Below are positions 20,785-62,243 of a stretch of DNA of 64,000 nt, in pieces; position 1 is the first letter of the stretch, and every line of letters begins with the position of its first letter. The notes below the pieces were generated by a model that made no database searches, was not told the DNA's origin, and saw only the letters and a list, made by a program, of their open reading frames with translations. Origin of the DNA: an uncultured delta proteobacterium (GTDB lineage: Bacteria > Desulfobacterota > Binatia > UBA9968); assembly GCA_963840855.1 (NCBI GenBank), contig CAWJBB010000068.1, positions 1 through 64,000 on the forward strand, in the 5' to 3' direction. Made by a program: the position numbers and the translations under genes.

Positions 20785-20786
20785 AG

Positions 20787-21509: not shown

Positions 21510-22084
21510 TTTTGCTGGCTCGCGGGGGAATCTCCTTTTTCCTGTTTTTGCAGCTCCTCTGGAAAAATCGTCGCTTGGACTCTGATCTTCCCATCGCCTT
21601 CGGCGACAGCACGGTCCTGTTCCATGAAATAGATCACGCGCGTACCGCTCACCTGGCTGTTGCCCTGGCGCATGACTGGATTGCCGGTTAACGTCACGGT
21701 TTTCGCCTTTTCGTCGAACACGGCTTTCTCACCGGTGGCCACGCGGTCGCCCTGCGTCGTATTGACCTTGCCTTCCGCGACGATCTGACTCATGCGCTTC
21801 ATCTCGGGGTCGTAGTGGGCGATCAGCGTCTCGCTCCGCATCGTCATCTCGGCCTGCACCATTACCACCCGCCCTTTGTAGGTAATGGTATTTTTCACTT
21901 GATCGACCTCCATCCAATCCGACGTGATGTAGATGGGATCCTTCTTGTTTAGTTCGAAACCGCCGCCGCTGGATTTTTTCTTTGTTTCCTCTTTCGCCGG
22001 GTCCGCCGCATGGGCCGATAGTGTTGCGATGATCAGCGCCACGAGGCCGATGAAAAATCGTATTGTCAACCAAGTACGCTCCAT
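21506..22084 (-). CDS. lptA: LPS transport periplasmic protein
   Basis: Signal peptide, OstA-type beta-jellyroll, LTGNP; synteny. Confidence 0.9.
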
Positions 22085-44837: not shown

Positions 44838-46181
44838 ATGCCCAACAAAATTTTGATCGTTGACGACGAGCCGTTTAACCTCGATCTCCTCGAACAGGAG
44901 CTCACGGAACTCGGCTATGCCATCGAGCGAGCGAGCAACGGCGCCGAGGCTCTGCAACTCGTTGACAAGAATAGCCCAGATCTGGTTCTGCTCGATTACC
45001 AGATGCCCGACATGAACGGCATCGAGGTGCTACGCGCCATTCGCCAGGACAACGGCGATCTACCGGTGGTGATCATTACCGCGCACGGCAGTATCGAACG
45101 CGCGGTGGAGGCCGTCAAAGCCCGCGCCGACGACTTCATTACCAAGCCCTTCGATCCCGAGCATCTGGCCTTGGTGGTAAAAAAATGTTTGGAGCGCGCC
45201 CAGCTCAAATCCGACGTCGAGTTCTTCGCTCAAGAACTCGGTGGCCGCAGCCGCCTGATCTCCGGAAACAGCGCGGCGATGCTGCGAATCGTCGCGGAGG
45301 CGAAAAAGGCCGCCACCAGCAAATCCACGGTTCTACTGCTCGGTGAAAGCGGCACCGGCAAGGAACTCTTCGCCAGATCAATGCATGAATGGAGCGAGCG
45401 CAGATTGAAGCCCTTCGTCGCCATCAACTGCGCCGGTCTGGCCAAAGAGCTGCTGGAGAGCGAGTTGTTCGGGCATGAGAAAGGCGCTTTCACGGGAGCT
45501 CATCAATTGAAAAAAGGCAAGCTGGAGCTGGCGCATGGCGGCACGGCGTTTCTCGACGAGATTGGCGAGCTCGCGCTGGAGTTGCAAACCAAGCTCCTGC
45601 GTTTCCTTCAAGAACGAGAATTTGAGCGGGTCGGCGGAACGGCGCCCATCGAGGTGGATTTGCGCATCATCGCCGCTACCAATAGCGATCTTGAAGCGGC
45701 GGTTAAAGCCGGGACGTTCCGCCACGATCTCTTTCATCGCCTCAACGTCATCGCGCTCACCCTCCCGCCGCTGCGCGAAAGAAAAGAGGATATTCCGGCT
45801 CTGGCAGATTATTTCCTGCAGAGATTTTCTTTGGAGACAAAAAAACACTTCGCGGCGATTGCCGACGCCGCGCAGGAGAAACTCCTGGCTTACGGCTGGC
45901 CCGGCAACGTCCGCGAGCTCGCAAACGTCATTGAACGGGCGGTCGTCTTGGGCGATGGGCCGCAGTTAACGCTGCATCACCTCCCCGCCCGTGTGGTCGG
46001 CGCACAACCGGTCGGCGCTATGAATCAGTCGTCGTTCCATGACGCCATCAATAGCTACCGGCGCGAGCTGATCGTCCGCGCGCTCGCCGACGCTCAAGGG
46101 AACCGCGCCGCCGCCGCCAAAGCGCTCGGCCTGCACCGCACCCATCTGATGAAACTGCTCAAAGCGCTTCAGATAACTTAG
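44838..46181 (+). CDS. sigma-54-dependent response regulator (REC-AAA-Fis, NtrC/AtoC family)
   Basis: REC domain, GESGTGKE, ESELFGHEKGAFTGA, WPGNVREL, C-terminal HTH. Confidence 0.96.
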   Translation: MPNKILIVDDEPFNLDLLEQELTELGYAIERASNGAEALQLVDKNSPDLVLLDYQMPDMNGIEVLRAIRQDNGDLPVVIITAHGSIERAVEAVKARADDFITKPFDPEHLALVVKKCLERAQLKSDVEFFAQELGGRSRLISGNSAAMLRIVAEAKKAATSKSTVLLLGESGTGKELFARSMHEWSERRLKPFVAINCAGLAKELLESELFGHEKGAFTGAHQLKKGKLELAHGGTAFLDEIGELALELQTKLLRFLQEREFERVGGTAPIEVDLRIIAATNSDLEAAVKAGTFRHDLFHRLNVIALTLPPLRERKEDIPALADYFLQRFSLETKKHFAAIADAAQEKLLAYGWPGNVRELANVIERAVVLGDGPQLTLHHLPARVVGAQPVGAMNQSSFHDAINSYRRELIVRALADAQGNRAAAAKALGLHRTHLMKLLKALQIT

Positions 46182-46201
46182 AAGAAGTCGAGGAGTGCAG
46201 G

Positions 46202-46240
46202 TGTCGCACTCTTGCTACAGGGTGTATCAAATCGACTACA
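46202..46240. promoter_or_regulatory. tandem enhancer-like sites TGT-N12-ACA x2
   Basis: TGTCGCACTCTTGCTACA and TGTATCAAATCGACTACA, 21 bp apart. Confidence 0.65.
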
Positions 46241-46338
46241 CTAACCGCGGCCTAGGGCCAATAACCTCGCTGACTGCCGCTGGCAATTGTTTAAGGAATT
46301 CAATGGCTTATTTCACAAACTGGGATATATCTAGCGTC

Positions 46339-46354
46339 TGGTATAGGTCTTGCG
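46339..46354 (+). promoter_or_regulatory. sigma-54 promoter candidate
   Basis: TGGTATAGGTCTTGCG with correct GG/GC spacing, ~100 bp downstream of the enhancer-like pair. Confidence 0.65.
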
Positions 46355-46467
46355 CTGGAAATCAGTTCTGGGTGATTTACGACGATCAACAGGCCCAGCA
46401 CCCCAGGTTCAAATTTTTCGCTGCTGGAACGCACCATGCAGCCATGCCGGAAGGCTACGCAAAATTT

Positions 46468-47443
46468 ATGATTAAGAAGATTTTTTTTATTACCGTCCTT
46501 TCGTTTTACTCGTTCAATTTTTCCGCCACGGCGCAGCCAGCAAAGCCATACCGCATCGGCGTTATTCTTCCCGGCGGACCGCTGCACGAGGCAATCGACG
46601 GGCTCAGGGACGGCCTCAGAGAGCTCGGCCTTGAAGAAGGCAAACAATTTGCACTGACGATTCGGGATACAAAGGGCGACGCCAAGGAGGGCGAAGCGGC
46701 GGCGAAGAATTTTGAGCAAGAGAAGGTGAGTTTGATATACGCGCTCAGCCACCTCTGTCACAACGGCGGCAAAGGGGGCGACTGCGAGTATCCCGATCGT
46801 ATTCGGCGTCGGCAGCGATCCGGTCGCCGGCGGGGTCATGGATAGTATTTGCGAAACCCGGCGGAAGGCTTACGGGCGTCCACTACCTGGTCACGGACCT
46901 TACGGCGAAGCGCCTTGAGATCCTGAAAGAGATTCTTCCGAAGCTCAGCCGCGTGGTGACGTTCTACAATCCGGGAAACCGTGTTGCCACAGAAGGCAGC
47001 TGAGTCGGGACGCGAGGAAGCAAAGCGGCTGGGGCTCAAGTTCATCGAGAGACACGTTCCCTCCGTCGAGGAACTTCGCGAAGGCGCTGCAGGCGCTCAA
47101 GACCGGCGAGGTAGATGCTTATTTCTATACCTCGGACGCGATGGTGACCAGCCAGGCTCAACTGATCATCGACACGGCGAAGGCCAAGAAGTTGGCGACG
47201 ATGTTCCACGAGCAAAGCCTCGTCACCAAGGGAGCCCTTGCCAGCTACGGCCAGAACTTCCATGAAATCGGCCGCGCGTCGGCGAAGTATGTGCAGCGGA
47301 TTCTGAACGGCGCCCATCCCCGTGATCTACGAATGGAGACCATTGAGAATATGGAACTGGCGATCAACCTTCAGACGGCAAAACAGCTGGGACTCACCAT
47401 CCCGCCGCAGGTGCTGGCGCGAGCGAAGAAGGTGATCAAGTAG
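46468..47443 (+). pseudogene. ABC_sub_bind (DUF534-type) SBP, multiply frameshifted
   Basis: RIGVI, GLRELG, DPV, GALASYG, INLQTAKQLGLTIPP in changing frames. Confidence 0.8.
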
Positions 47444-47536
47444 GCAAGCGGCGCGAGGCGGCAGGCAACAGGAAGAAATTTTAGATTTTCGATTTTGGAT
47501 TGAGAGGACCAAGTACATGACGAATCGGCCGGATGC

Positions 47537-47643
47537 GAGCAACCAACGAACTTTGAGTTTGTAATCAATCTGAAAACGCCAAACAGATCGGCCTGACGAT
47601 TCCGCCGAATGTGTTGGCGCGAGCGGACAGGGTGATTCGATAG
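47537..47643 (+). pseudogene. isolated 3' end of an ABC_sub_bind gene
   Basis: EQPTNFEFVINLKT / KQIGLTIPPNVLARADRVIR*. Confidence 0.8.
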
Positions 47644-47652
47644 GCGTGAGGC
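47582..47652 (+). repeat. ~71-bp direct repeat left of the TA module
   Basis: Matches 48430-48501; the 30-bp core is also identical at 49536-49565. Confidence 0.85.
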
Positions 47653-47704
47653 GAAAGGCGTGAGAGGCAAGGAGATGCCAAGACGACTGAGTTCCTACTT
47701 CGGA

Positions 47705-48118
47705 TTAAGGGATTATCTCGAAGGCTCGATTCCGATTCATTCGATACGTGGAAAAGCCGCGGCGATCCAGCGTGAAAATCCAGTTTGTTCCCAACTCTTC
47801 GCCCAACACAACCAAGGTGGCGTCGGCAAAATCCATTGGGACATTGCGATATCTCTCCATCAGAGCCGTAACCCGCTGCAAGCTTTTCGCCGAGGACGGA
47901 ACCAAGTGAAAAGCGCCTCTGAGAACAAACTCAAGGCAAACTTTCTGCGCGCGCCACTGGGGTCCGACCAAATAGAGCGTTTCGGTCAACACGGCTTCAG
48001 TGGTGACGACAGGGCCGGTCCAGTTCTCCAACGCCGCTACGCAGTCACCGTGCAGCTTCTCGTCCCGATCCACGAGCGCCACGAAAGCCCCGGTATCCAA
48101 CAACAGTTCATCTTCCAC
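47705..48118 (-). CDS. PIN-domain VapC-type toxin
   Basis: LLDTG, VLTE, MDFADA, TLDRRGF. Confidence 0.9.
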   Translation of the reverse strand: MEDELLLDTGAFVALVDRDEKLHGDCVAALENWTGPVVTTEAVLTETLYLVGPQWRAQKVCLEFVLRGAFHLVPSSAKSLQRVTALMERYRNVPMDFADATLVVLGEELGTNWIFTLDRRGFSTYRMNRNRAFEIIP

Positions 48119-48357
48119 GGCGCAATCGATGGATCAGATAGTCGCGGTGGCGTTGCCCGAGATCGGAGCGGCCGCTGGCAATACTTGCCGAGCAAATCGC
48201 GCACACGCTCGATGGGGCGCACTTCCGGCTGGGTGTCCAGATATTGCTCCAAAGCCTCGCGCACCACTTCTGAACGCTTGCGCTTCAAGCGCTTGGCCGA
48301 CCGCTCGAGCTTTGCGGCTAAGTCCGCGGGCAGGCGCATGCTCAATTGCCGTTCCAT
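48108..48357 (-). CDS. ribbon-helix-helix (CopG-type) antitoxin, apparent 1-nt insertion near 48186
   Basis: LSMRLP-x-DL ... RSEVVREAL; the corrected tail GSIASGRSDLGQRHRDYL overlaps the toxin start. Confidence 0.82.
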
Positions 48358-48373
48358 ATGCTTTGCCTCCTAG

Positions 48374-48392
48374 TGCAATACAATGTAATGCA
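48374..48392. promoter_or_regulatory. palindromic operator candidate of the TA operon
   Basis: TGCAATACA-A-TGTAATGCA just upstream of the antitoxin RBS. Confidence 0.55.
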
Positions 48393-48429
48393 AAGTGGTA
48401 CAAAAGTCCATTCGTACCGAGTAGTCTGG

Positions 48430-48501
48430 AACAGATCGGCCTGACGATTCCGCCGAATGTGCTGGTGAGGGCGGATAGGGTGATTCGAATAGGCGTGAGG
48501 C
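48430..48501 (+). repeat. ~72-bp direct repeat right of the TA module (SBP 3' end)
   Basis: Encodes QIGLTIPPNVLVRADRVIR; matches 47582-47652. Confidence 0.85.
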
Positions 48502-48572
48502 ACGAGGCGGATAGGCGAGAGGAAGAATTCGGATTGAAGCAGAAAATCATGGTTAGGAAATCATGATGCGAT

Positions 48573-49595
48573 TTGCACATCTTTTCCGCAGAATCTAAAA
48601 GCGGCAATCCAAAATCTAAAATGGGTGGCGATCTTCGCTATCGTCTCTCAGTCGCCATCGGTGGGGTGGCGGCCACGGCGCAGGAGCCGGCGAAGGTCTG
48701 GCGGATCGGTGTGCTGGTCTCAAGCTCTGCATCCTTGAATGCGTCCCGTGACGAAGCTCTCCGGCAAGGCTTACGCGAGATGGGTTATGTGGAGGGCAAG
48801 AACATCATCATGGAGTTCCGCTATGCCGACGGTAAACTGGATCGTCTTTCTGAGCTGGCCGCCGATCTGGTTCGCTCCAGGCCCGACCTTATCCTTGTCG
48901 GCGGCACCAGGGTGGCTGTTGCCGCCAAGCAAGCAACCGGCACAATCCCGATCGTCGTGGCGGGGGCCGGCGATCTTGTTGCGGCCGGAGTGGTTGACAA
49001 CCTCAACCGTCCCGGCGGCAACGTCACCGGGGTGTCCAGGCTTTCCCCGGAAATTCTCGGCACGCGAGTGGAGCTGCTCAAAGAAGTCATTCCAAAGGCC
49101 ACGCGCATAGCAACCCTCTTGAATCCTGAAAACCCTGGAAACGCGTCCAGTTTGAGAGAGATCGAGCTTGATGCGCTGGCGTGGGGAATGAGGCTCCAAG
49201 TGCTTGCTGCCCGCAGTCCCGATGACCTGGCAAGCGCCTTCAGAGCTGCGGTCAAGGAAAATTGCAGCGCTCTCATTGTCATGGTCGATGCCCTCTTCAG
49301 TAGCAACCGATCATCGATTGTCGAATTGGCGGTTAAGCATCGCCTGCCCGCGATCTATGACAGAGCCGAGTTTGCCGACGCTGGCGGACTGATTAGCTAT
49401 GGGATGAACTTGGCCGATCTGTCCCGGCGCGCCGCTTGGTATGTGGATCAGATTATAAAAGGCGCCAAGCCCGAGAAGTTGCCGCTAACGGAGCCGGCCA
49501 AGTTCGAGCTGATTATCAACCTCGAAGCCGCGAAGCAGATCGGCCTGACGATTCCGCCGAATGTGCTGGCAAGAGCAGACCGAGTGATCAGATGA
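48573..49595 (+). CDS. ABC_sub_bind (DUF534-type) SBP; start uncertain
   Basis: RIGVL, GYVEGKNI, RPGGNVTG, GGLISYG, QIGLTIPPNVLARAD. Confidence 0.88.
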   Translation: MHIFSAESKSGNPKSKMGGDLRYRLSVAIGGVAATAQEPAKVWRIGVLVSSSASLNASRDEALRQGLREMGYVEGKNIIMEFRYADGKLDRLSELAADLVRSRPDLILVGGTRVAVAAKQATGTIPIVVAGAGDLVAAGVVDNLNRPGGNVTGVSRLSPEILGTRVELLKEVIPKATRIATLLNPENPGNASSLREIELDALAWGMRLQVLAARSPDDLASAFRAAVKENCSALIVMVDALFSSNRSSIVELAVKHRLPAIYDRAEFADAGGLISYGMNLADLSRRAAWYVDQIIKGAKPEKLPLTEPAKFELIINLEAAKQIGLTIPPNVLARADRVIR

Positions 49596-49744
49596 TTGCA
49601 AAATCTAAAATCGGGGCGGGCGATAGCTGATTCGGCCGGGATAAGACTAAAGGTTGGAGTCGACAAGCAATTGTGGATGTAGAGAGTATCGTGTAAGAGT
49701 CGAGAACCGGAACCGATGAAGATTGAAAAGGGATAAGCGCGTCA

Positions 49745-52162
49745 TTGGGAATTTGGAGAAGTGAGCGAAAATTGAAATTTCGCGAATTACCCCTGATAAG
49801 ATTGTTTACCGGGCGCCAGCGGGCCCGTTTGATGCGCGACTATTTTCTTATCTCCGTGCTGCTGGTGGGCGGCGGGCTGACCGCCAGCGGACTGATCGAG
49901 ATCTACTTCCGTTATCAGGAGAGCCAACAGCATTTGGCTCATTTGCAGCGGGAAATCGCCGCCGGCGCGGCCGTCAAAATCGAACGTTTCGTGCAAGAGA
50001 TCCACAACACTCTTAAAGGAGCGACGCGGAGCCGGGAGATCGCGCCGAAGGGTCTAACCACGGAATTTCGCTTTGAGCTGGAAAAACTCCTGCTGATCGC
50101 GCCGGCAATAACGGAAGCTCTCGCGCTCAATCAGTCGGGCGCGATCCAAGTCCAGGCATCGCGGTTACGCACAGTGCTTCCCGAAATCAAGAAAGATCTT
50201 GCGATCTCGCCGGCGTTCCTCCACGCCAAACAAGGCAAATCTTTTTTCGGAACCGTTTACTTCGTGCGCGGCTCCGAACCTTACATGACCATCGCCGTGC
50301 CCATCGAGCGTTTCGCTGGCGACGTCATCGGCGTACTCCAAGCCGAAGTCAACCTCAAGTACATCGGCGATGTGGTCACCAATCTCACCATCGGCAAAGC
50401 CGGGTATGCCTATGTCATCAGCCGCAGCGGCGAACTCATCGCCCATCCCGATATCAGTCTCGTTCTTCAACGCCGTAACGTTTCCCTGCTCGAGTCCACT
50501 AAGGCGGCATTCAGCGGCAAAAGCGGCATTAGCAGCCAACACGCCCTTGTGACTCCCAACATCCAGGGTAAAAATGTTCTGAGTTCCTCCGCGCTCATCC
50601 CCGGTCTCGACTGGGCGATCATCGTCGATCGGCCGGTGGAAGAGGCGTACGAACCCGTCTATGCATCGATGCTCAGGACTTCGGGCCTGCTCCTAGTCGG
50701 CCTCGGCATGGCGCTGATCGCGAGCTTGTTCCTGGCCCGGCGAGTCGTCCGTCCGGTGCGGATTCTCCGCGAGGGCGTGGAGCGCATCGGCACCGGCGAC
50801 TTGAGTTACCGGCTCGATCTGAAGACCGGCGACGAGATCGAAGTCTTGGCCGACGAATTCAACAAAATGACTTCTCGGCTGCGAGAGTCCTACGCCAACT
50901 TGGAGCACAAGGTCGAAGACCGCACGCGCGAGTTGACGGAATCTTTGGCGCAACAAACGGCGACCAGCGAGATTCTCGGAATCATCGCGAGTTCACCGAC
51001 TGACCTTCAGCCGGTCTTGGATGCTCTGGCTGAAAGCGCCGCGAGACTATGCGATGCCAATAGCGCGCAAATTTATCGCGCCGACGGAAATACCCTGAGA
51101 CTGGCGGCCTACCATGGATCACTTCCGGCAACTGAAGAGATTCCGATTGTCCGAAGCTCGGTCGCGGGCCGCGTGTTTCTCGACCGTCGAACCATTCATA
51201 TTGAAGATCTGGCAGCAGAAGTCGAAACCGAATTTCCCGCCGCCAAGCAGGCGCAAGAACGCTTCGGGTATCGAACTTTGCTCGCCACACCGTTGTTGCG
51301 TGAAGGAATTGCCCTGGGTGTCATAGGGATCCGCCGAACCGAGGTGCGTCCTTTCACAGATAAACAAACAGCTCTGCTAAAAACTTTCGCCGACCAGGCG
51401 GTGATTGCCATTGAAAACGTTCGCCTGTTCCAAGAACTGGGCGAAAAAAACGAACAGCTGGAAGTCGCCAGCAAACACAAGTCGCAATTTCTCGCCAACG
51501 TCAGCCACGAGCTGCGCACGCCGCTCAATTCGATTATCGGTTTCACCAGGATCGTCCTGCGCCGGTCCGAAGGAAAGATCGACGTTTTGCAGAAAGAAAA
51601 TCTGCAAAAAGTTTTGATCAGCGCCGAGCATCTGCTCAACCTGATCAACGGTTTGCTCGACCTGGCCAAAATCGAAGCCGGGCGCATGGAAATCTACGCC
51701 GAGACATTCAAGCTGGAAGAAATCGTCCGCATCGCCACTGCAACGGTCGAACCCATGCTGAGAAACGGTAACGTGCGCTTGGTCACTGAAATTGCCGCCG
51801 ATCTACCCCTGATCAAAACCGACCGCGACAAGCTCAAACAGGTGGTCCTCAATCTGCTCAGCAACTCGGCGAAATTTACCGAGAAAGGCGAGATCAAAGT
51901 CGCCGCGTGGACAGTGAATGGGTCGATGAAGCTTGCGGTGTCGGACACCGGCATCGGCATGAACCACGACGCAATCAATTATATATTCGAAGAATTTCGC
52001 CAGGTCGATATGTCGACGACGCGCAAATACGGCGGCACGGGACTCGGCCTGGCCATCGTCAAACGGCTCACGAATCTGCTCGGCGGCGACATTGCTGTCG
52101 AGAGCGAAGAAGGAAAAGGGACGAAGTTCACCGTGACACTGCCGATGGAACTGAAAAGTTAG
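49745..52162 (+). CDS. sensor histidine kinase (TM-dCache-TM-HAMP-GAF-HisKA-HATPase)
   Basis: IAHPD Cache motif, GDEIEVLADEFNKM, FADQAVIAIEN, SHELRTPL, NLLSNSAKFT, GTGLGL. Confidence 0.95.
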   Translation: MGIWRSERKLKFRELPLIRLFTGRQRARLMRDYFLISVLLVGGGLTASGLIEIYFRYQESQQHLAHLQREIAAGAAVKIERFVQEIHNTLKGATRSREIAPKGLTTEFRFELEKLLLIAPAITEALALNQSGAIQVQASRLRTVLPEIKKDLAISPAFLHAKQGKSFFGTVYFVRGSEPYMTIAVPIERFAGDVIGVLQAEVNLKYIGDVVTNLTIGKAGYAYVISRSGELIAHPDISLVLQRRNVSLLESTKAAFSGKSGISSQHALVTPNIQGKNVLSSSALIPGLDWAIIVDRPVEEAYEPVYASMLRTSGLLLVGLGMALIASLFLARRVVRPVRILREGVERIGTGDLSYRLDLKTGDEIEVLADEFNKMTSRLRESYANLEHKVEDRTRELTESLAQQTATSEILGIIASSPTDLQPVLDALAESAARLCDANSAQIYRADGNTLRLAAYHGSLPATEEIPIVRSSVAGRVFLDRRTIHIEDLAAEVETEFPAAKQAQERFGYRTLLATPLLREGIALGVIGIRRTEVRPFTDKQTALLKTFADQAVIAIENVRLFQELGEKNEQLEVASKHKSQFLANVSHELRTPLNSIIGFTRIVLRRSEGKIDVLQKENLQKVLISAEHLLNLINGLLDLAKIEAGRMEIYAETFKLEEIVRIATATVEPMLRNGNVRLVTEIAADLPLIKTDRDKLKQVVLNLLSNSAKFTEKGEIKVAAWTVNGSMKLAVSDTGIGMNHDAINYIFEEFRQVDMSTTRKYGGTGLGLAIVKRLTNLLGGDIAVESEEGKGTKFTVTLPMELKS

Positions 52163-52265
52163 GGGTAAACAGTGAGGAGTGAAGCGAGAAGTAAGGGTGA
52201 GGCGAGATCCCCTGTCTTTCGCTTCTAAATCCAGACTCCTTGCCCAAACTGGAAAGGGAAGACCT

Positions 52266-52633
52266 ATGTCCAAAAAAAAAATCCTCGTAGTCGATGACAC
52301 CGATTTTAACCGCGATCTCGTCGTGCAGTTGTTGGAGGACGAGTACGACATGGTGATCGCGGAGAACGGCGAAGAGGCGCTGCAAAAGAGCGAAAGCGGA
52401 AAGACCGGATCTTGATCTTGATGGACCTCGGCATGCCGGTGATGGACGGCTGGGAAGCGACCAGAATATTGAAGGCCAATGACAATCTCAAGCACATTCC
52501 GATCATCGCCGTGACCTCCCACGCCATGGTCGGCGACGAGATCGACGCCCGCAAGGCCGGCTGCGATGATTATCTGCCGAAACCGATCGACGAAGACCTT
52601 CTGCTCAGAAAGATTAGGAAGTATCTCGGATAG
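52266..52633 (+). CDS. single-domain response regulator (DivK-like), frameshifted near 52390-52410
   Basis: KILVVDD ... ILMDLGMPVMDG ... AGCDDYLPKP across two ORFs. Confidence 0.85.
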
Positions 52634-52704
52634 TTTTGGATTTGCGTTTTGCGATACATGGATGGAGCCTATCTACACAACGCTTGGATTGGAGAAGAAA
52701 AACG

Positions 52705-53688
52705 ATGAATAGAAACGTTTGGGTTCTTCCACTGACTGTTTTTCTGTTGCTGATTGCTGCTATTTCAGGGGCGCAGCAAGCGGCCAAAGTATGGAAAATC
52801 GGCGTGCTGGTTTCGGGCAACAAGGCGTCGAACGCGATGCGCGATGACGCGTTGCGCGAGGGGTTGCGGCAACTAGGCTACGAGGAGAACAAGAACATCG
52901 TCTGGGAGTACCGCTACGCCGAAGGCAAAACGGATCGCTTGCCGCAACTCGCGCGCGAGCTGGTCGAGCAAAAACCCGACGTCATCGTCGTGGGTGGCAC
53001 CAGCGTCGCCGTCGCCGCGAAGAACGCCACCAGTGCGATTCCCATCGTCGTCGCCGGCGCCGGCGACTTGGTGGAAGCCGGCCTGGTCAAGAGTTTCATG
53101 TACCCGGGTGGCAATGTCACCGGCGTTTCGCGCATGTCTCCAGATTATTTTGGCGCGCGGCTCAAACTGATCAAGGAAATCATGCCCAAAACCGCGCAGG
53201 TCGCGGCCCTGGCGAATCCTAAGAATCCCGGTTACGCGCGCAGTATCAAGGATGCCGAGTTGGGCGCCCAATCCCTCGGCATGACTTTCCAGACGGTCAA
53301 CGCGCGCACGCCCGACGAGCTGGATAACGCCGTCGGCAGCGCCGGCAAGGGCGGCGCCACTGCGCTCTTCGTCATGACTGACGCAATGTTCAATAGTAAC
53401 GTCGCGCGACTCGCCAAGGCATCGATCAAGTACCGGCTCGCTGCCGTCTATGATCGCCCCGACTTCGTGGAGGCCGGCGGGCTATTGAGCTACGGCGTGA
53501 ACCTGGCCGATTTAAACCGGCGTGCCGCTGAATATGTGGATCAAATCTTCAAGGGCAAAAAGCCCGCTGATCTGACGCTGGTGGAACCGACGAAGTTTGA
53601 CTTGGCGGTCAACTTGAAAACGGCCCAACAGATCGGCATCACGATACCGCCTGAAGTAATAAACCGGGCGGGGAAAGTCGTTAGGTGA
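52705..53688 (+). CDS. ABC_sub_bind (DUF534-type) SBP
   Basis: Signal peptide; close paralog of 48573-49595. Confidence 0.9.
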   Translation: MNRNVWVLPLTVFLLLIAAISGAQQAAKVWKIGVLVSGNKASNAMRDDALREGLRQLGYEENKNIVWEYRYAEGKTDRLPQLARELVEQKPDVIVVGGTSVAVAAKNATSAIPIVVAGAGDLVEAGLVKSFMYPGGNVTGVSRMSPDYFGARLKLIKEIMPKTAQVAALANPKNPGYARSIKDAELGAQSLGMTFQTVNARTPDELDNAVGSAGKGGATALFVMTDAMFNSNVARLAKASIKYRLAAVYDRPDFVEAGGLLSYGVNLADLNRRAAEYVDQIFKGKKPADLTLVEPTKFDLAVNLKTAQQIGITIPPEVINRAGKVVR

Positions 53689-53711
53689 AGCGCAGGCGTG
53701 AGGGTGAAGTT

Positions 53712-54794
53712 ATGCCGAACAAAATCCTGATCGTCGACGACGAGCCGTTTAACCTCGATCTCCTGGAACAAGAGCTCATGGATTATGATTACGTGATCGA
53801 AAAAGCGGCCGACGGCGTAGAGGCGCTGGAGAAGATCGATAGCTTCGACCCCGACGTCATACTGCTCGACTATATGATGCCGAGGATGAACGGCTTGGAG
53901 GTTGTCCGGCGCCTTAGAGAGAACGAAAAGCATAAGAGTATCCCCGTCATTCTCTTGACCGCGAAAGCAAGCCAGGAGGATAAAATCGCCGGGCTCGACG
54001 CCGGAGCGGATGATTACGTCACCAAACCGTTCGACTCCTTCGAGTTGTTGGCGCGGGTGCGGGCGATGCTGCGCATTAAGCAGATGCACGATACTTTGGA
54101 AGAGTGGAACAGGACTCTCGCCGATAAAGTGAGCCAGCAAGTCACCGAACTGCAGCGCATGGAACGGCTCCGGCGTTATCTCTCGCCGCAGATCGCCGAG
54201 ACCATCTTGGGCAACGAAGCAGCCCTGTTCAAGACGCACCGGCGGGAAATCACCGTGGTCTTTCTCGACCTGCGCGGTTTCACGGCGTTTTCCGATAGCG
54301 CCGAACCCGAAGAGGTGATGGATTGTTTGCGTCACTATCACGCCGAAATGGGCAAGTTGGTTTTCAAATACGAAGGCACGTTGGAACGCTTCATGGGCGA
54401 TGGTATTGTCGTGATCTTCAACGACCCGATCCCGTGTGAAAACCATTCGCAAAAGGCCGCCCAGATGGCGATTGAAATGCGCAACCGAGTCAAAGAATTA
54501 CGCGTCGCGTGGCTCAAGATGGGTTATGATCTCGATCTGGGCGTGGGTTTGGCGAGCGGCTACGCGACGCTTGGAACAGTTGGTTTTGAAGGCCGAATGG
54601 ACTATGGAACGATAGGCAATCTACCCAACCTGGCCGCGCGGCTCTGCGCGGAAGCTCAAGGCGGCCAGATAGTGACGGATCAGAAGACCATGAGCAAGCT
54701 CGAAGAGCACATCGAAGCCGCAGCCCTTGAAGGGCTGCGCCTCAAGGGGATCAACCGCCCGGTTACGGCGTATAATCTGCTCAACACAAAGTAG
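53712..54794 (+). CDS. response regulator-class III adenylate/guanylate cyclase fusion
   Basis: REC domain; FLDLRGFT, FMGDG, DYGTIG, NLAARL. Confidence 0.93.
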   Translation: MPNKILIVDDEPFNLDLLEQELMDYDYVIEKAADGVEALEKIDSFDPDVILLDYMMPRMNGLEVVRRLRENEKHKSIPVILLTAKASQEDKIAGLDAGADDYVTKPFDSFELLARVRAMLRIKQMHDTLEEWNRTLADKVSQQVTELQRMERLRRYLSPQIAETILGNEAALFKTHRREITVVFLDLRGFTAFSDSAEPEEVMDCLRHYHAEMGKLVFKYEGTLERFMGDGIVVIFNDPIPCENHSQKAAQMAIEMRNRVKELRVAWLKMGYDLDLGVGLASGYATLGTVGFEGRMDYGTIGNLPNLAARLCAEAQGGQIVTDQKTMSKLEEHIEAAALEGLRLKGINRPVTAYNLLNTK

Positions 54795-54799
54795 CGGGG

Positions 54800-55732
54800 A
54801 TGAACCAAAACAATAGATCCGACGCGCGGCGGAGCGCATCATTCGTGGTGCGGTTCTGGGGCGTGCGCGGCAGTTATCCCGCCACCGATCCGGCGACTCG
54901 CGGAATCGGCGGCAATACCTCTTGTGTCGAGGTCGCGGTGGCCGGACAGCGCCTAATTTTCGACGCCGGAACAGGGATCATTCCTTTGGGCAAAGAGATT
55001 TGCAATGATTTTTCCGCGCGGCCCACCGCCTATGTCTTTTTGAGCCATACGCACATGGATCATATCATGGGACTTTGCTTCTTTGAGCCCCTCCTTACGG
55101 CCGGGGCGCGTTCGTTCATTTTCGGTCCGGGAAATTCCCGAGGAGCCTTGACTAGAAGTTTGCGGCAACTAACGCACAGCCACCTGTTCCCGGTAACCAT
55201 CGACGAGCTCAAAGGAAGAAAGGAAATTCACTCCCTTCAGGGCGGCGAGATCATTCGCTTTCCGTCACCCGGCAAAAGACCCACCATCGATAAGAATTCA
55301 CAATCGAATCGGCTCGACTCCGAGGAGCTTGAGATCACCGCCCTCAAGAGCGTGGCTCATCCGCGCTCCGGCGTGATGCTTTACCGGGTGAACTTCGGCG
55401 GGAAAAGTCTGGTGTACGCTACCGACGTCGAACAAAAGGAAGGCGGTTACCCTGAAATTATTGAATTCGCGCGGGGCGCTGATCTTCTGATCCATGACGC
55501 GCAGTACTTACACGACGAATATTTTTCCCAGAGTAAACCGAAAATGGGTTGGGGCCACAGCACCATCGAGATGGCCGCGGAGGTGGCCCGGAAGGCCGGC
55601 GTCCAGCGACTCGCGCTTTTTCACCACGAGCCGAGCCATGACGATAAAACCATGCGGGCTATTGAACGAGAAGGCAAACGGTTATTTCCACGATCGCTGA
55701 TCGCCCACGAGGGCATGAAATTATCATTGTAA
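54800..55732 (+). CDS. MBL-fold metallo-hydrolase (candidate cyclic phosphodiesterase)
   Basis: FWGVRGS, GGNTSC, DAGTG, SHTHMDH, HDAQY, WGHS, FHHEP. Confidence 0.88.
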   Translation: MNQNNRSDARRSASFVVRFWGVRGSYPATDPATRGIGGNTSCVEVAVAGQRLIFDAGTGIIPLGKEICNDFSARPTAYVFLSHTHMDHIMGLCFFEPLLTAGARSFIFGPGNSRGALTRSLRQLTHSHLFPVTIDELKGRKEIHSLQGGEIIRFPSPGKRPTIDKNSQSNRLDSEELEITALKSVAHPRSGVMLYRVNFGGKSLVYATDVEQKEGGYPEIIEFARGADLLIHDAQYLHDEYFSQSKPKMGWGHSTIEMAAEVARKAGVQRLALFHHEPSHDDKTMRAIEREGKRLFPRSLIAHEGMKLSL

Positions 55733-55739
55733 CAATCGC

Positions 55740-56726
55740 ATGGTAAACACCGTCACAGTGTTCACTGGAAATCTGCTCGCGATACTTTTCATGCTCGCTT
55801 GCGCGGCCTTCGAAGCCCAAGCACAAATGCACCGTATTGGCGTCTTGGTGCCCGAAATGGGCCGGGCGCAGTCCCAAGCGCAAAAAGGACTGATCGAGGA
55901 ACTGCAACAGTTAGGCTACCAACCACGGAAAAACGTCAGTTTTGAAATCCGCAATGCCAAGGGCAACCGAAATGCGCTTCAACCCGCGGCCAATGAACTC
56001 GCCGCGAGTAAAATCAATTTAATTTTTACCACCGGAACCAGAGCCACGCTGGCGGCAAGCGCGGCCACGCGCGATATTCCCATCGTTTTCGTTCATCCGG
56101 GCGACCCCATCGCGTTGGGTCTCTTGAAAGGTTCCGGAGAATCCAGAGGCAACGTCATGGGTGTCGCCGCCTTCGCGGCGCAAACGACGGACATCCGGCT
56201 CGCGCTTCTGAAAGAAATCTTTCCCGCGCTGCAAAAACTCCACATCTATTTTGACTCCAACAGCAGTTATGCAGCGGAGAATTTGGCTCTAGTGGAATCC
56301 GCCGCCAAAAAGCTGGCTCTACATGTCGTTAACCACGGCGTAAAATCAGTGGACGAGTTGAAAGCGAGCGTCAGCGCGACTCCGAGCGAGCAGGGCGCGG
56401 CAATTTTTCACATACCGGATGACCTGGTTGAAAGCGAGGTGGATTTCATCTTTGAAACGGCGCGGCAAAAGAAACTGCCGACGATGTTCAACGAGGAGGC
56501 TTGGGCCATCGCCGGGGCGATGGCCGCCCACGGGCCCAACTATTTTCAGATGGGCCGCCAGGCCGGCCGTCTCGCGGACGGAATTCTCAAAGGACAAACG
56601 CGCGGTTCCGTGCCGGTCCAGCGTGCCGCTAAATTCGATCTGACGCTCAATTATCGGACGGCCAACATTATCGGATTGCGCCTTTCTCAGGAGATCTTGA
56701 AAAAAGCCGACAAGGTCATTCGCTGA
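55740..56726 (+). CDS. ABC_sub_bind (DUF534-type) SBP
   Basis: RIGVL, IPIVF, DP, GRQAG, KKADKVIR. Confidence 0.88.
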   Translation: MVNTVTVFTGNLLAILFMLACAAFEAQAQMHRIGVLVPEMGRAQSQAQKGLIEELQQLGYQPRKNVSFEIRNAKGNRNALQPAANELAASKINLIFTTGTRATLAASAATRDIPIVFVHPGDPIALGLLKGSGESRGNVMGVAAFAAQTTDIRLALLKEIFPALQKLHIYFDSNSSYAAENLALVESAAKKLALHVVNHGVKSVDELKASVSATPSEQGAAIFHIPDDLVESEVDFIFETARQKKLPTMFNEEAWAIAGAMAAHGPNYFQMGRQAGRLADGILKGQTRGSVPVQRAAKFDLTLNYRTANIIGLRLSQEILKKADKVIR

Positions 56727-56738
56727 CCGAGCCAACTC

Positions 56739-59405
56739 ATGGAGCCCGTCGCCGATACCATCAGAACCATTCCCATATTCTCCGGGCTTTCCCGCGAGGA
56801 TACCGCGAAGGTTCTCGGCAAAATGGAAGAGACTTCGTTTGCCGCCGGGACAACGATTGTTTCCCAAGGCGATCAGGGCGATGCGTTTTATCTGATTCAG
56901 TCCGGCGCGGTGCAGGTGATGTTGGAAAGCGACGCCGGCAAGTCGGAAGTCATCGCGGTGCTCGGGGCGAAGGACTGGTTCGGAGAAATGGCGCTGTTTA
57001 CCGGCGAGCCACGTTCAGCGACGATCTTGGCGGTAAAGCCGACGATTCTCTGGCGCCTCAACCGCGAGGCCTGGGATGATCTCATCGACAAACATCCGAC
57101 CTGGCTCTTGCAGCTCTGCGCGACCCTGAGCAAACGACTGTCTCACCTGGATCGGCAATATTCCACGGGACGCGAAGCATTCAACTCGTTGGCGGGAGAG
57201 TTCTACAGCTCGCGGCCGCCCGAGCAGCAACAGTTTTTCCGCCGCGCCTGTCTGCTGAGCGATATCGACAGTTCCACGGTAGAGCGGTTACTCGGCACGG
57301 CCGGGGCGAAATCATACCTGGCGGATCTCGAAAAGAACCGGTTCCGTCTGGTCCGCCGTCTGGACGGAACAAAATACGAGCTGCACAGCTACTTCAAAGA
57401 TTTCCTGCGGGAAAAGCTGCTCGAAACCGATGGCAAAGAAACCAAACTCAAGCTCGACCGGCAAATCAGCGCCGAGTATGCGGCGCTGGGCGATTGGCGG
57501 CAAGCGGTTTACCATTTGTTGGAAGCCGGCGACTCGCCCAAAGCGGCCGAGCTTCTGATTGCGCAAAAGGAGCCGTTGCTGAGCGACGCTGTTGGGTTTG
57601 TCAAGGCGGCCATCGACTCCTTGCCCAGGGATCAACTTTATTCCGACCCGCGCCTGGTTCACTTGCACGCGACGGCGCTGGCCCAACTGGGCGACCCGGC
57701 GGGAGCCGTGCGCATTTACAGAGAAGTTCTTTCTCAACGATCTCGAGAAATTGCCGGGGCCGAGGCCATCACTCGCCATATCCGCATGGCGGAAACTCTG
57801 GCGCGGCGAAAGGAATTTGGCCAGGCGCTTAGCGTTTTGCGCAGTGCCCTCGACATGGCCGGTCATGAGAGCGTGACATCGTCCGGCGACGTCTCGAGAC
57901 TTTACCTCGACGCGAACCATCAGACGGCGACAAACCCGTTGGGCGCAGCTGGGGTCGTGGCATCGCCGTTCCGTTACCGGCTAGGAAAATATTCCGGCTC
58001 AGTCGAAATAGGATCGGTCAGCAAATGGTTCGGCGCCATTCTCGGCTTGGGCCTATGGGGATATCTCTGGTTTGGCAAACCAGACATCGGCCTTGATGAC
58101 AGCGGCACGAAACTACTCGGATTGTTGTCCCTAACGTTGATCTATTGGGTTTTCTGGGTGTTGCCCGATTACGGTGTAGCGTTCATCTTCGCCCTGGGAC
58201 TGATACTTACCGGATTGGCATCGGGGGAAACCGTCCTGGGAGGCTTCGCCAGCACCACTTGGTTTATGACCCTGGGTGTGCTCGGCCTGGGAGCGGCGAT
58301 CACCGGCTCAGGTCTATTTTATCGCCTCTCCCTGCACCTGGTGCGGTTTTTCCCTTTGAGTTTTTATTGGCAGGTCGTCGGCATGGGCCTCATGGGCGTC
58401 GTCGTCATGGCATTGATCCCGCAACAGACCGCAAGAACAGTCGTCATCAGCCAGATGCTGGTGAACCTTTCCGAGAGCCTTGGCTATAAAACCCCTTCCA
58501 GGGCATCCACCGGTTTGTTCGCCGCAAGTTTTCTTGGACTGGGCCAGCTCGGTTTTCTTTTTCTTACGGGTTCCACCACCAGTTTGATCGCCTGGGGCCT
58601 GCTGCCCGCGGATGTGCGCAGCCAACTCACCTGGGGATATTGGTTTCTCGCCGCCCTTCCGCCCGCATCGATCGTCCTCATCATGGTGCTGGCCGCCATC
58701 GTTCTTATCTTCCGGCCCGAGTCGGAGCCGAAGATTTCTTATAAAATGGTGCAAACCCAACTGGATGTTCTGGGGCCGCTGTCCGCCAAGGAATGGATCA
58801 GTCTGGGAGTGCTCTGCTTCACAGTTACAGGGTGGCTTACGGTCTCTTATCACGGCATCGACGGCGCTTGGATCGCGTTGATTGCCTTTTGCGTTTTGGT
58901 CAATACCGGTGTCTTGGGCTGGCAAAATTTGAAAAAGGCGATTGATTGGGAATTACTCCTCTATATGGGCGTAACGTTGAGCATCCCCACGCTCTTAACT
59001 CAGGCCAGAATCGACCAATGGCTGGTGGAACTGATGACTCCGGCAATCGAACCTTTTATGAATCATCCCGCTTCGTTTTTCCTCGTTATCGCCCTGCTTA
59101 CCTACGCGCTCAAATTGTTCTTTACTAGTTTCCTTACCGTGGTAACGCTCTCCGTCGCGTTGGTGCCATTGTCGGTCGATGTCGGCATGAGTCCCTGGAT
59201 CATCGCCATGATCATTCTGATGGCATCGGAAGTCTGGTTTTTCCCGTTTCAGGTGGACTGGCACACGATGGCGTACTCCACCACCGAGAAAAAAGGTTTC
59301 AGCTATCCGCTCATGTGCCGCGTCAATCCCATCTACGCCCTCGCCTACATCACCGCCCTCATCGCAGCGATCCCGTATTGGAGATACCTCGGCCTGATGG
59401 ACTAG
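56739..59405 (+). CDS. cNMP-binding + MalT-like winged-helix/TPR + DASS (SLC13) transporter fusion
   Basis: FGEMAL-x4-RSAT; YELHSYFKDFL; AVYHLLEAGD; GFAS-x2-W, SGL-x2-RL, IP-x2-TAR, FLTG, IPYW. Confidence 0.85.
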   Translation: MEPVADTIRTIPIFSGLSREDTAKVLGKMEETSFAAGTTIVSQGDQGDAFYLIQSGAVQVMLESDAGKSEVIAVLGAKDWFGEMALFTGEPRSATILAVKPTILWRLNREAWDDLIDKHPTWLLQLCATLSKRLSHLDRQYSTGREAFNSLAGEFYSSRPPEQQQFFRRACLLSDIDSSTVERLLGTAGAKSYLADLEKNRFRLVRRLDGTKYELHSYFKDFLREKLLETDGKETKLKLDRQISAEYAALGDWRQAVYHLLEAGDSPKAAELLIAQKEPLLSDAVGFVKAAIDSLPRDQLYSDPRLVHLHATALAQLGDPAGAVRIYREVLSQRSREIAGAEAITRHIRMAETLARRKEFGQALSVLRSALDMAGHESVTSSGDVSRLYLDANHQTATNPLGAAGVVASPFRYRLGKYSGSVEIGSVSKWFGAILGLGLWGYLWFGKPDIGLDDSGTKLLGLLSLTLIYWVFWVLPDYGVAFIFALGLILTGLASGETVLGGFASTTWFMTLGVLGLGAAITGSGLFYRLSLHLVRFFPLSFYWQVVGMGLMGVVVMALIPQQTARTVVISQMLVNLSESLGYKTPSRASTGLFAASFLGLGQLGFLFLTGSTTSLIAWGLLPADVRSQLTWGYWFLAALPPASIVLIMVLAAIVLIFRPESEPKISYKMVQTQLDVLGPLSAKEWISLGVLCFTVTGWLTVSYHGIDGAWIALIAFCVLVNTGVLGWQNLKKAIDWELLLYMGVTLSIPTLLTQARIDQWLVELMTPAIEPFMNHPASFFLVIALLTYALKLFFTSFLTVVTLSVALVPLSVDVGMSPWIIAMIILMASEVWFFPFQVDWHTMAYSTTEKKGFSYPLMCRVNPIYALAYITALIAAIPYWRYLGLMD

Positions 59406-61346: not shown

Positions 61347-61720
61347 GGGGCTCTGGTGGATCCGTGCAATCAGCGCTAAGCGACTGTTGATAGTCTGTCC
61401 TGTCGCATAATTCAATGCCCCTTCCAGTCAGATAAACTGGATTGACAGGTGAATCAATAACTCCTTGGCACTTGTTGGCGGTTTACGATTTCTCGTTAAC
61501 CCCAACTCGGTTGAACGCGCGCCTGTTTCTATTTCCCGGACGAATCCGGCGCTCTTCTATGCGCCCTGCGATGAACGACAAAACCTCGTAGTGGGTCCGA
61601 CCAAATTTGTCTACGCTTCCGCTCATCAGTATCTTTACCGGGTTCGTATTCCCTCCCTTATGACCCCAGGAGTCACCAATAGTGAAGCCCTTTCTTAACG
61701 CCCTACTTTACGCCACCGAT

Positions 61721-61736
61721 TGGCATGCTTACTGCA
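61721..61736 (+). promoter_or_regulatory. sigma-54 promoter candidate
   Basis: TGGCATGCTTACTGCA with correct GG/GC spacing, 55 bp before the ATG at 61791. Confidence 0.55.
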
Positions 61737-61790
61737 CCTGCGCCGGGGAACATTCAATCCCTGAGCCGGCGTCAACGCCGGTGTGGCGAC

Positions 61791-62243
61791 ATGAAAACTT
61801 TACCGAAGACAATTTTTGTCAGTCTGCTGTTTCTTACCTCATGTTCCACAGGTATGGTGGGTTCCTCATCGACGCTCCGAGCGGATCCGGAAATTTTTTG
61901 GGTGGGCGAATTAGAGGTTAGGCTCTATCAAGATCGCGAAAAAATGACTCGCGAGCTGCCGCCGTCCTTGGCGTTGCCAGGCGCCTTGAGGATAGGCGGC
62001 AAGCAGCTCCAAATTTTCGGCTACTATGACGAACAAAACAAACGGATTTTTTCAGTAAATGACGCCCGCGTTCTGCTGCACGAAATTAAGCATTATTTGG
62101 AACCGCATTGGCGGCATGAAATTGGCGCTAACTACCTCGATGCGTTGGGGCAGGGTATCCAATCCGCCTGTGTCGATTGTGCCGCTCCGACGCCAGAGAA
62201 GAGCTCGGTAGTCAATCCCATCCTCGTCGGCCAATCCCGTTAA
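61791..62243 (+). CDS. lipoprotein with HExxH motif
   Basis: Lipobox FLTSC, GYYD, LLHEIKH, C-terminal CVDC. Confidence 0.7.
   Translation: MKTLPKTIFVSLLFLTSCSTGMVGSSSTLRADPEIFWVGELEVRLYQDREKMTRELPPSLALPGALRIGGKQLQIFGYYDEQNKRIFSVNDARVLLHEIKHYLEPHWRHEIGANYLDALGQGIQSACVDCAAPTPEKSSVVNPILVGQSR

Follow-up and report, generated by a model that had tools for sequence, protein, structure and literature searches.

A Candidatus Binatia gene cluster that may couple a two-component sensor to a cyclic-mononucleotide signal and a membrane carrier

Genes at the locus

In a 64,000-nucleotide stretch of DNA (the window) from an uncultured delta proteobacterium of Candidatus Binatia, positions 44838 to 59405 hold a cluster that encodes a sensor histidine kinase, a receiver-linked nucleotidyl cyclase, a putative cyclic-nucleotide phosphodiesterase and a membrane carrier with its own cyclic-nucleotide-binding (cNMP) domain. 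We lean, narrowly, towards the reading that this Binatia gene set links a two-component sensor with a cyclic-mononucleotide signal and with the membrane carrier. The basis for this is the architecture of the proteins, the conservation of the genes, a promoter motif, catalytic and binding motifs, and fold classes. The window takes up the first 64 kb of contig C68 (119.7 kb), which belongs to a 7.1-Mb genome in 93 contigs (94% complete, 8% contamination).

Every gene that the initial annotation had listed was found by Pfam in its place in this interval. The cluster genes lie on the plus strand and begin with one for a response regulator of 447 residues (44838-46181), which has REC, Sigma54_activat (235 bits) and HTH_8 domains and GAFTGA at residue 216. 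By these domains and this motif its sequence places it among NtrC-family sigma-54 enhancer-binding response regulators; the best NCBIfam models, AtoC and NtrC, both score under their cut-offs (AtoC 473 versus 714). A promoter-like element for sigma-54, TGGTAT-N5-TTGC, matches the strict pattern at 46339-46353. It is followed by genes for two solute-binding proteins (SBPs) of family PF04392: SBP1 (46468-47443), whose reading frame is broken in this assembly, and SBP2 (48621-49595; Pfam 5.7e-57), which is intact and directly 5' of the kinase gene. The kinase (49832-52162; its open reading frame (ORF) may begin at a TTG at 49745) is built as transmembrane segment (TM)-dCache_1-TM-HAMP-GAF-HisKA-HATPase_c. 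Next come a lone REC, that is, a single-domain receiver (52266-52633), SBP3 (PF04392; 52705-53688; Pfam 1.1e-54) and a REC domain fused to a class III nucleotidyl cyclase (Guanylate_cyc; 53712-54794, ORF possibly from 53685), here called the REC-cyclase.

The last three genes encode a metallo-β-lactamase (MBL)-fold hydrolase (54800-55732; Lactamase_B_2, PF12706 clade; a putative cNMP phosphodiesterase), SBP4 (PF04392; 55740-56726), which has a signal peptide and belongs to a carrier-linked clade, and the carrier itself (56739-59405), whose start lies 12 nucleotides after the SBP4 stop. From Pfam and an AlphaFold2 (AF2) model the carrier comprises a cNMP-binding domain (residues ~1-135), a MalT/TPR-like region (~140-420) and a DASS-fold membrane domain (~425-888). 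Convergent to it, on the minus strand, is a gene for a CHASE2 protein with a class III cyclase domain (Guanylate_cyc; 59526-61415; Pfam).

Conservation across Candidatus Binatia

A scan with one genome per species, for which the domains of the window served as mapping queries, gave 65 carrier loci, with carrier identities of 57-94%. Many of these loci are cut by contig ends, so that gene counts are lower bounds. Among 24 genomes of the same family, 15 have a near full-length carrier (58-94% identity), and contig-cut pieces occur in three further genomes, two of them unpublished (G009, G015) and used for this count alone. It was also found in two of five genomes of a second family. A third family, represented by 11 genomes, gave no carrier and just weak DASS-only matches. 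Elsewhere, relatives of the carrier form 533 protein clusters in a metagenome protein database, and near-identical DNA occurs in sequencing runs of 12 studies. Some Binatia genomes have two carrier copies (L045 with L061; L054 with L079; two matches in G023), and in the genome of L045 and L061 just one copy has an SBP4 partner.

The gene set accompanies the carrier in part of these loci. The MBL gene was found in 23 of the 65, the REC-cyclase and the lone REC in 19 each, the CHASE2-cyclase in 13, the dCache kinase in 11 and NtrC in eight. SBP, MBL, REC-cyclase and kinase genes occur together in eight loci, four of which also have NtrC. Positions are tightly kept: the MBL gene is directly 5' of the SBP4-carrier pair in 20 of the 23 loci that have it, as is the REC-cyclase gene directly 5' of MBL in 14 of the 16 holding both. 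In the window the order is NtrC-SBPs-kinase-REC-SBP-cyclase and then MBL-SBP-carrier. Five loci (L045, L048, L053, L065 and L068; type B) have the rotated order, with MBL-SBP-carrier first and NtrC-SBPs-kinase-REC-SBP-cyclase second, and in both orders the cluster stands behind the same AI-2E and thioredoxin-TPR genes. The rotated orders are the strongest point for more than chance, as the two blocks were rearranged and yet stayed together.

The gene set, including the sigma-54 activator, is a conserved unit of Candidatus Binatia; cross-genome conservation was a check proposed in the initial annotation. Four SBP genes by themselves would be unremarkable in a genome with 114 PF04392 matches; chance adjacency is exceeded because the whole set is conserved across species.

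The initial annotation had described a single plus-strand run. The genes are present as listed, and the run is interrupted by a VapBC-like pair on the minus strand (47705-48357; PIN 47705-48118, RHH 48037-48357; Pfam) that is an insert outside the proposed circuit. It sits between two orphan copies of an SBP 3' end, each of 70 nucleotides and 79% alike, at 47572-47641 on its left (repeat family D1) and 48420-48489 on its right (found by repeat comparison), both on the plus strand. The arrangement resembles a scar left by recombination at repeated SBP tails, and the congener locus L029 has no room for the insert. Joints in Logan contigs that skip 47502-48591 were discounted, as their short side is 25-27 nucleotides and lies within the repeated tails. 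Similarly, the raised depth at 47426-47646, 48310-48530 and 49415-49635 is due to the repeated SBP 3' end and not to copy number.

In this assembly two cluster genes have broken reading frames: the SBP1 sequence runs through three frames or more, and that of the lone REC through two. Relative to two congeners (L028 and L029, where it is intact) the lone REC has 1-nucleotide insertions at 52394 and 52413. Logan contigs from four runs of four studies were placed on 46100-52700; they are ~90-99% alike and thus come from close relatives, not certainly of the same strain. The extra base at 52394 is absent from every covering contig (X1, X2, X6). At 52413 it is missing from X1, X2 and X6, with part of the X2 depth (4.6 of 12.3) and all of the X5 depth keeping it. 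SBP1 positions 46748, 46847 and 46993 each lack one base in one or two of X1, X2 and X5. The relatives' contigs also lack a single base at 48185. Each of the five breaks is a +1 insertion, and fragmented genes are common in the genome; assembly errors are therefore a more likely cause than strain-specific decay. Systematic +1 errors may also account for the fragmented SBP genes genome-wide, where just 55 of 124 SBP ORF pieces are full length.

Kinase, cyclase, carrier and binding proteins

The periplasm-facing dCache-HAMP-GAF kinase would phosphorylate three receivers: the NtrC-type activator, the single-domain REC and the REC-cyclase. In the window the NtrC-type protein and the REC-cyclase begin with the same 22 residues, and the β1-α1 segment ILIVDDEP(F/L)NLDLLEQEL is common to both proteins in the window and in all five other loci that have both. 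The lone REC differs in this segment. In a comparison within the genome, the cyclase receiver matches the cluster NtrC best (126.5 bits, versus at most 101.4 for other receivers). Helix α1 is the main partner-recognition surface of receivers. Given this and the identical β1-α1 segment, one shared kinase is argued for, and the kinase probably feeds both the activator and the REC-cyclase. The step from kinase to cyclase that the initial annotation drew is thus consistent with the receiver sequences.

The dCache part of the kinase has weak matches to PctA/B/C in the PDB (1e-6). Its GAF domain was considered as a cNMP sensor, and no NKFDE-type motif was seen in it by eye. Paralogous modules of SBP, dCache kinase and NtrC genes are found in the same genome, two on contig C41 and one on C40. 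The genome also encodes giant histidine kinases with five to ten tandem GAF domains of the type found in the cluster kinase (C85:93648-99680, C58:82271-87811 and C58:76485-80519). Among kinases with GAF repeats, that on C85 and one at C41:191201-194221 are each trailed by a lone REC and PF04392 SBPs.

Feedback would arise as the activator drives a sigma-54 promoter that precedes the SBP-kinase-REC-SBP-cyclase block. The element at 46339-46353 lies 158 nucleotides after the NtrC stop and 115 before the SBP1 ATG, and is one of two strict matches in the window. TGGTAY-N5-TTGC also occurs 217-244 nucleotides after the NtrC gene in all five type-B loci, with 17 strict matches in total across 989,028 bases of loci. 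The promoter-like element behind the activator gene in the window and in these five loci, together with the presence of rpoN, agrees with the transcriptional feedback proposed in the initial annotation. Only the strict pattern was used, because a loose one (two mismatches) was at chance level (72 found versus 67 expected). Scans for sigma-70 promoters (7 found, 7.2 expected) and terminators (20 versus 21.5) were also at chance level.

The rpoN gene (sigma-54, 491 residues) and, directly upstream of it, an ABC ATPase-like gene (20790-21728) together occupy 19309-21728 of the window on the minus strand, the classic lptB-rpoN arrangement. A second strict sigma-54-like element, TGGCATGCTTACTGC, is found at 61721-61735 on the plus strand and is conserved in a congener (L028:10313). 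It is upstream of a 172-residue ORF (61725-62243) that has no Pfam match.

The phosphorylated REC-cyclase would make a 3',5'-cyclic mononucleotide. Its score with the Pfam class III cyclase model (PF00211) is 72.7 bits against a cut-off of 21.9, its catalytic domain is closest to those of Pseudomonas aeruginosa CyaB (PDB 3R5G, 1.1e-35) and Synechocystis Cya2, and both metal-binding Asp residues and the catalytic Asn and Arg (D35, D79, N155 and R159 of alignment A3) are invariant in 21 of 21 orthologues. The base-selecting position in ERFxGDG is Arg in 20 of these 21 and His in the other, and the second purine-selecting position is Gly, Ser or Asp. The first of these positions is Lys in CyaB; in Cya2 it is Glu in 2W01 and Lys in the fusion construct 6FHT. 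Among the 21 orthologues the residues fit neither the adenylate pair (Lys/Asp, Lys/Thr) nor the guanylate pair (Glu/Cys, Ser, Gly). Because of this Arg, the product and its match to the carrier sensor are not fixed by the sequence, and the REC-cyclase may make a nucleotide other than cAMP. With Arg/Gly at its purine-specifying positions, it does not bear out the initial choice of cAMP as the signal. Paralogues of the REC-cyclase in this genome have His (C58:8854-9969) or Lys (C49:10585-11646) at the base-selecting position.

The CHASE2-cyclase has the canonical Lys/Thr pair and is probably an adenylate cyclase that would contribute to the signal independently. As this adenylate-type enzyme lies beside the carrier in the window and in 13 of the 65 loci, 'self-contained', as the circuit was first described, is too strong.

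The MBL enzyme, encoded directly before the carrier operon, would remove the nucleotide as an atypical class II phosphodiesterase. It scores 69.9 bits with Lactamase_B_2 (cut-off 27), and in the alignment SHTHxDH is invariant, as are H83, H85, D87, H88, H187, D209, H253 and H275/276. An AF2 model (mean pLDDT 79) was compared by Foldseek; the top matches were RNase Z, YhfI (6KNS, rank 2), 1ZKP (a Bacillus anthracis ElaC homologue), ZiPD, a PhnP-family enzyme and a Brucella MBL bound to GMP or AMP, with yeast PDE1 at rank 45. Its language-model neighbours include clusters with 20-32% of members in the Apyc1 family. In this genome it has a paralogue on C69, an MBL-REC fusion directly 5' of a dCache kinase gene, among cyclase-AAA_16-TPR genes. 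Both family and fold thus place its sequence within the PF12706/YhfI phosphodiesterase clade. PF12706 is described as an 'atypical class II' phosphodiesterase family that holds the cAMP phosphodiesterases Rv1339 and CpdA (PMC9293780), and YhfI is described as preferring cAMP and cGMP (PMC9117128). Membership of a clade with known cAMP/cGMP phosphodiesterases agrees with the role that the initial annotation gave to the enzyme; a phosphodiesterase role is well supported, and from its kinship we infer that its substrate is a 3',5'-cNMP.

Alternatively, the enzyme could be an RNase Z/ElaC-like nuclease or another phosphodiesterase that has come to lie in the cluster for another reason. RNase Z is its best match in both sequence and fold, and it misses all curated cut-offs: the RNase Z model TIGR02651 gives 88.8 bits against 292.95, over two partial stretches only, and the model for a 'cyclic nucleotide-degrading phosphodiesterase' (NF041851) 45.6 against 400. 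Such a role is nevertheless unlikely in view of the length of 310 residues, the tight placement between cyclase and carrier operon in 14 loci, the paralogue fused to REC among cyclase genes, and the second rank of YhfI among fold neighbours.

That paralogue stands in a second cyclic-nucleotide cluster, at C69:13143-30638 (L095), which comprises the MBL-REC fusion and a dCache-HAMP kinase, flanked by zinc-ribbon-cyclase-AAA_16-TPR_MalT (STAND-type) genes. Some genes of this cluster appear to be split by frame breaks.

In the proposed circuit the nucleotide would bind the N-terminal cNMP domain of the carrier and alter the activity of a carrier resembling DASS exchangers. The cNMP domain (PF00027, 88.6 bits) has an intact phosphate-binding cassette, FGEMAL..PRSAT (F81, G82, E83, M84, A85, L86, R92, S93, A94), which is invariant in 15 of 15 sequences. 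Residues 149-312 resemble MalT (NCBIfam). The carrier scores 113.9 bits with PF00939 (cut-off 27) and 126 with TIGR00785 (cut-off 198.6). A profile of residues 425-888 matched DiT1 (4.7e-23), LaINDY (~7e-22) and DiT2.1 (2.3e-19), and VcINDY at 1e-6 or weaker. In a Foldseek search with the AF2 model (mean pLDDT 78), ranks 1-30 were all of DASS fold, led by AtDiT1, AtDiT2.1 (TM-score up to 0.83) and LaINDY, and the TRAP protein SiaQM entered the list from rank 41 only. Both hairpin motifs read S-T-T (S505-T507 and S612-T613-T) and are invariant or nearly so, and thus depart from the Ser-Asn-Thr of DASS-C. In cotransporters the SNT motifs are described as binding Na+ and carboxylate (PMC7553777). 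Sequence and model together indicate a DASS-fold protein nearest to Na+-independent dicarboxylate exchangers. The idea of cNMP-controlled anion transport therefore keeps its intact cassette and its DASS fold, with the qualification that the carrier is closest to Na+-independent exchangers of that family.

PF04392 proteins are abundant in this genome, with 114 matches, of which ~55 are full length, and tandem arrays of up to 15 ORF pieces (C6:804-15168, C32:27052-37063 and C50:92692-108777). In each of five related genomes, 9-35 matches reach E ≤ 1e-20. SBP2-4 score 172-194 bits with PF04392 (cut-off 25.9) and match PDB 3LKV (1.4e-50). Ligands given for PF04392 proteins are Trp, Tyr and Phe (PMC10443332, Table 1). 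The SBPs of the cluster reach just 139-144 bits with the TrpX equivalog NF041285, against a cut-off of 390. As first noted, there is no permease or ATPase with these SBPs: in the whole 119.7-kb contig there is one ABC ATPase-like ORF, that beside rpoN (20790-21728, minus strand), and no PF02653 permease. All five PF02653 loci in the 94% complete assembly are Liv-type and none is near a PF04392 gene; four come with a Peripla_BP_6 SBP of their own, and the fifth encodes two permeases and two ATPases. Pairing of these SBPs with ABC permeases elsewhere, which would have spoken against the circuit, was thus not found within this genome.

It is very unlikely that the SBPs stand in the cluster by chance and work with ABC importers whose genes lie elsewhere or in the 6% of the genome missing from the assembly. 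Such a view could draw on the 114 matches, on the many tandem arrays that have no signalling neighbour, on the completeness of 94% and on the fact that the nearest NCBIfam model is a tryptophan ABC binding protein, TrpX. The low TrpX scores and the Liv-type permease loci, with their own partners, argue against it. So does the distribution of the SBPs among loci. In a tree of 122 SBPs, including 52 full-length paralogues from this genome, all 45 carrier-adjacent SBPs form an exclusive clade (support 0.987) that none of the 52 paralogues enters. An SBP gene is directly 5' of the carrier in 42 of 52 loci with room for one, and from SBP4 stop to carrier start the median gap is 12 nucleotides (≤ 19 in 38 of 45). 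The extra SBPs, in turn, track the kinase block: they are present in nine of 11 dCache-kinase loci and in none of 15 well-flanked loci without the kinase. Their number varies from 0 to 3. The two kinase loci without them are L038, where AI-2E is directly 5' of the kinase in a full cluster, and L092, where the contig is cut at the kinase. SBPs in front of the kinase or cyclase form no stable clades (the best hold two of five pre-kinase and four of six pre-cyclase SBPs).

Because the SBP4 clade tracks the carrier while the extra SBPs follow the kinase block, two SBP roles can be read from the sequences: SBP4 would be the carrier's own periplasmic partner, and SBP1-3, which travel with the kinase/NtrC block, would be co-receptors or sigma-54-driven products of the kinase system. 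The initial annotation had placed the SBPs before the kinase in the signalling chain. At the level of gene association, the tracking of the extra SBPs with the kinase agrees with this; the sole SBP clade that is always orthologous belongs to the carrier.

The SBPs may instead deliver cargo. SBP4 and the DASS-fold carrier would then form a transporter of the TRAP/TTT/TAXI-GltS kind, the kinase and NtrC would act like DctB/DctD, and the nucleotide would only gate the carrier. This is a tentative possibility, to which the position of SBP4, its exclusive clade, the missing ABC partner and the sigma-54 promoter in front of SBP genes all lend weight. The 15 well-flanked loci without dCache kinase have no extra SBP, and most keep SBP4. 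Moreover, TRAP membrane parts share the DASS fold, and a similar argument is described as the foundation of the TAXI-GltS class (PMC12344293). Against it, profile and Foldseek matches put the membrane domain closest to DASS exchangers (DiT1 and LaINDY, with VcINDY far weaker). To our knowledge, an SBP-fed exchanger has no precedent. Four of five searched genomes with an SBP-less carrier have no SBP4 orthologue assembly-wide (best matches 29-34% identical); the fifth has one, at its other carrier copy. None of seven loci with distant cNMP-DASS or DASS-only paralogues has a neighbouring SBP gene. An admittedly weak search for an SBP4-like domain fused to carrier or kinase in long proteins gave just two multi-SBP proteins and no SBP-carrier fusion.

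In the full wiring of the initial annotation, the input to the circuit is ligand-bound SBP1-3 docking on the kinase dCache as co-receptors, in the manner of LuxP/LuxQ and ChvE/VirA. We regard this as a tentative possibility, on a par with cargo delivery. The presence of extra SBPs in nine of 11 kinase loci speaks for it, as does the recurrence of the SBP-dCache kinase-NtrC module three more times in the genome. The dCache domain has ISPAF where PctA-type amino-acid sensors have DRPWY, which on a weak reading fits indirect sensing. The full cluster of L038, which has no extra SBP, and L068, which has none before the kinase, point the other way, as do the missing orthologous clades before kinase and cyclase and an SBP number of 0 to 3, as expected of regulated cargo binders.

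The proposed circuit and known systems

Returning to the coupling of sensor, nucleotide and carrier, we infer each phosphotransfer step, the identity of the nucleotide, the substrate of the phosphodiesterase, the cargo and the contacts of the SBPs. Several observations weigh against this coupling. Where the carrier is flanked by 8 kb or more on each side (21 loci), MBL and REC-cyclase are both missing from its surroundings in 13, and the carrier therefore does not need the circuit. Related genomes are non-independent samples. In type-A loci no sigma-54 element was found before the cluster, and a relaxed search of 14 type-A or truncated loci gave nothing convincing there. To these are added the Arg and second purine-selecting residues of the REC-cyclase, the likeness of the MBL enzyme to RNase Z and its low scores, the genomes with a carrier and no SBP4 orthologue, and the frame-broken SBP1 and lone REC of this very assembly.

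As a whole, the initial interpretation is partly supported. A more specific version, offered tentatively and with less confidence than the general coupling, is that a cyclic nucleotide, possibly not cAMP, gates the carrier from inside. Its source would be a phosphorylation-controlled cyclase with an unusual specificity (Arg at the base-selecting position), and a dedicated MBL phosphodiesterase would clear it. On this view the large PF04392 expansion (114 matches, no ABC partner) would supply binders to the carrier and to dCache kinases as a 'Bug-like' pool.

A bacterial solute carrier under direct, post-translational control of a cyclic-nucleotide sensor fused to it is not known to have been characterised. 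A 2023 review mentions such cNMP-sensor fusions in passing and for MFS carriers only (PMC10710835). One conserved locus would hold the sensor-carrier with its own writer, its own eraser and a two-component input, a complete pathway from signal to transport in a lineage of uncultured, globally common soil bacteria. If SBP4 does feed the carrier, the pair would be a further class of SBP-dependent secondary transporter, and this would explain the dozens of Binatia PF04392 binding proteins that have no ABC partner. A literature search with few terms in a limited open-access set, and hence non-exhaustive, found no paper that treats this cluster, a PF04392-DASS pair or a DASS carrier fused to a cNMP domain.

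The MBL enzyme is like the PF12706 phosphodiesterases (Rv1339, Corynebacterium CpdA, YhfI and Apyc1, as described for them) in family, in its HxHxDH motif and in fold neighbourhood. It differs from them in scoring under the NCBIfam cut-off and in having its own N-terminal segment, FWGxRGS...GGNTSC. The best matches of carrier residues 425-888 are the DASS exchangers LaINDY and DiT1/DiT2.1 as described in PMC7553777 and in PDB entries 6WTW, 9MCR and 9MCU. Identity to these is ~18-22%, and the carrier differs in having STT and not SNT and an N-terminal extension of ~420 residues with cNMP and MalT-like parts. In the exchangers themselves, basic residues (Arg and His) act as surrogates for Na+. 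In the tight coupling of an SBP gene to an elevator-type secondary carrier (42 of 52 loci), the cluster resembles TRAP, TTT and TAXI-GltS systems as these are described in PMC12344293. Its SBP is a PF04392 protein and not DctP, TAXI or TctC. Its carrier is DASS-exchanger-like, with a cytoplasmic cNMP-TPR module, and no Q-type subunit was identified.

Among the regulatory parts, the REC-cyclase joins a REC domain to a class IIIb-like catalytic domain in which every catalytic residue is kept, and thus resembles CyaC and CyaB (3R5G). Cyanobacterial CyaC is a receiver-regulated class III cyclase. At the substrate-specifying positions the REC-cyclase has Arg/Gly, in contrast to Lys/Thr in CyaB and Glu/Gly in Cya2. 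For the SBPs, the Bug/TctC expansion offers a parallel in its large excess of orphan paralogues, like that of PF04392 in Binatia. Binding proteins act as kinase co-receptors in LuxP/LuxQ and ChvE/VirA. The cluster is like these in having SBP genes beside a kinase with a tandem PAS/Cache-like periplasmic domain, a likeness known here from the genes, but its SBP family differs (PF04392) and the copy number varies.

In DctB/DctD of rhizobia and Pseudomonas, a dCache sensor kinase and a sigma-54 regulator of the NtrC family control dicarboxylate carriers. At the level of gene architecture, both systems have a periplasmic double-Cache kinase, a REC-AAA+-HTH activator, a -24/-12 promoter and an adjacent carrier of dicarboxylate type. 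In contrast to DctB/DctD, the cluster kinase adds a GAF domain and the cluster two further receivers, the promoter precedes the SBP and kinase genes and not the carrier, and a cyclic-nucleotide layer would lie between sensor and carrier. Each part of the cluster belongs to a known kind, and the nearest whole systems are DctB/DctD control and the receiver-regulated class III cyclases.

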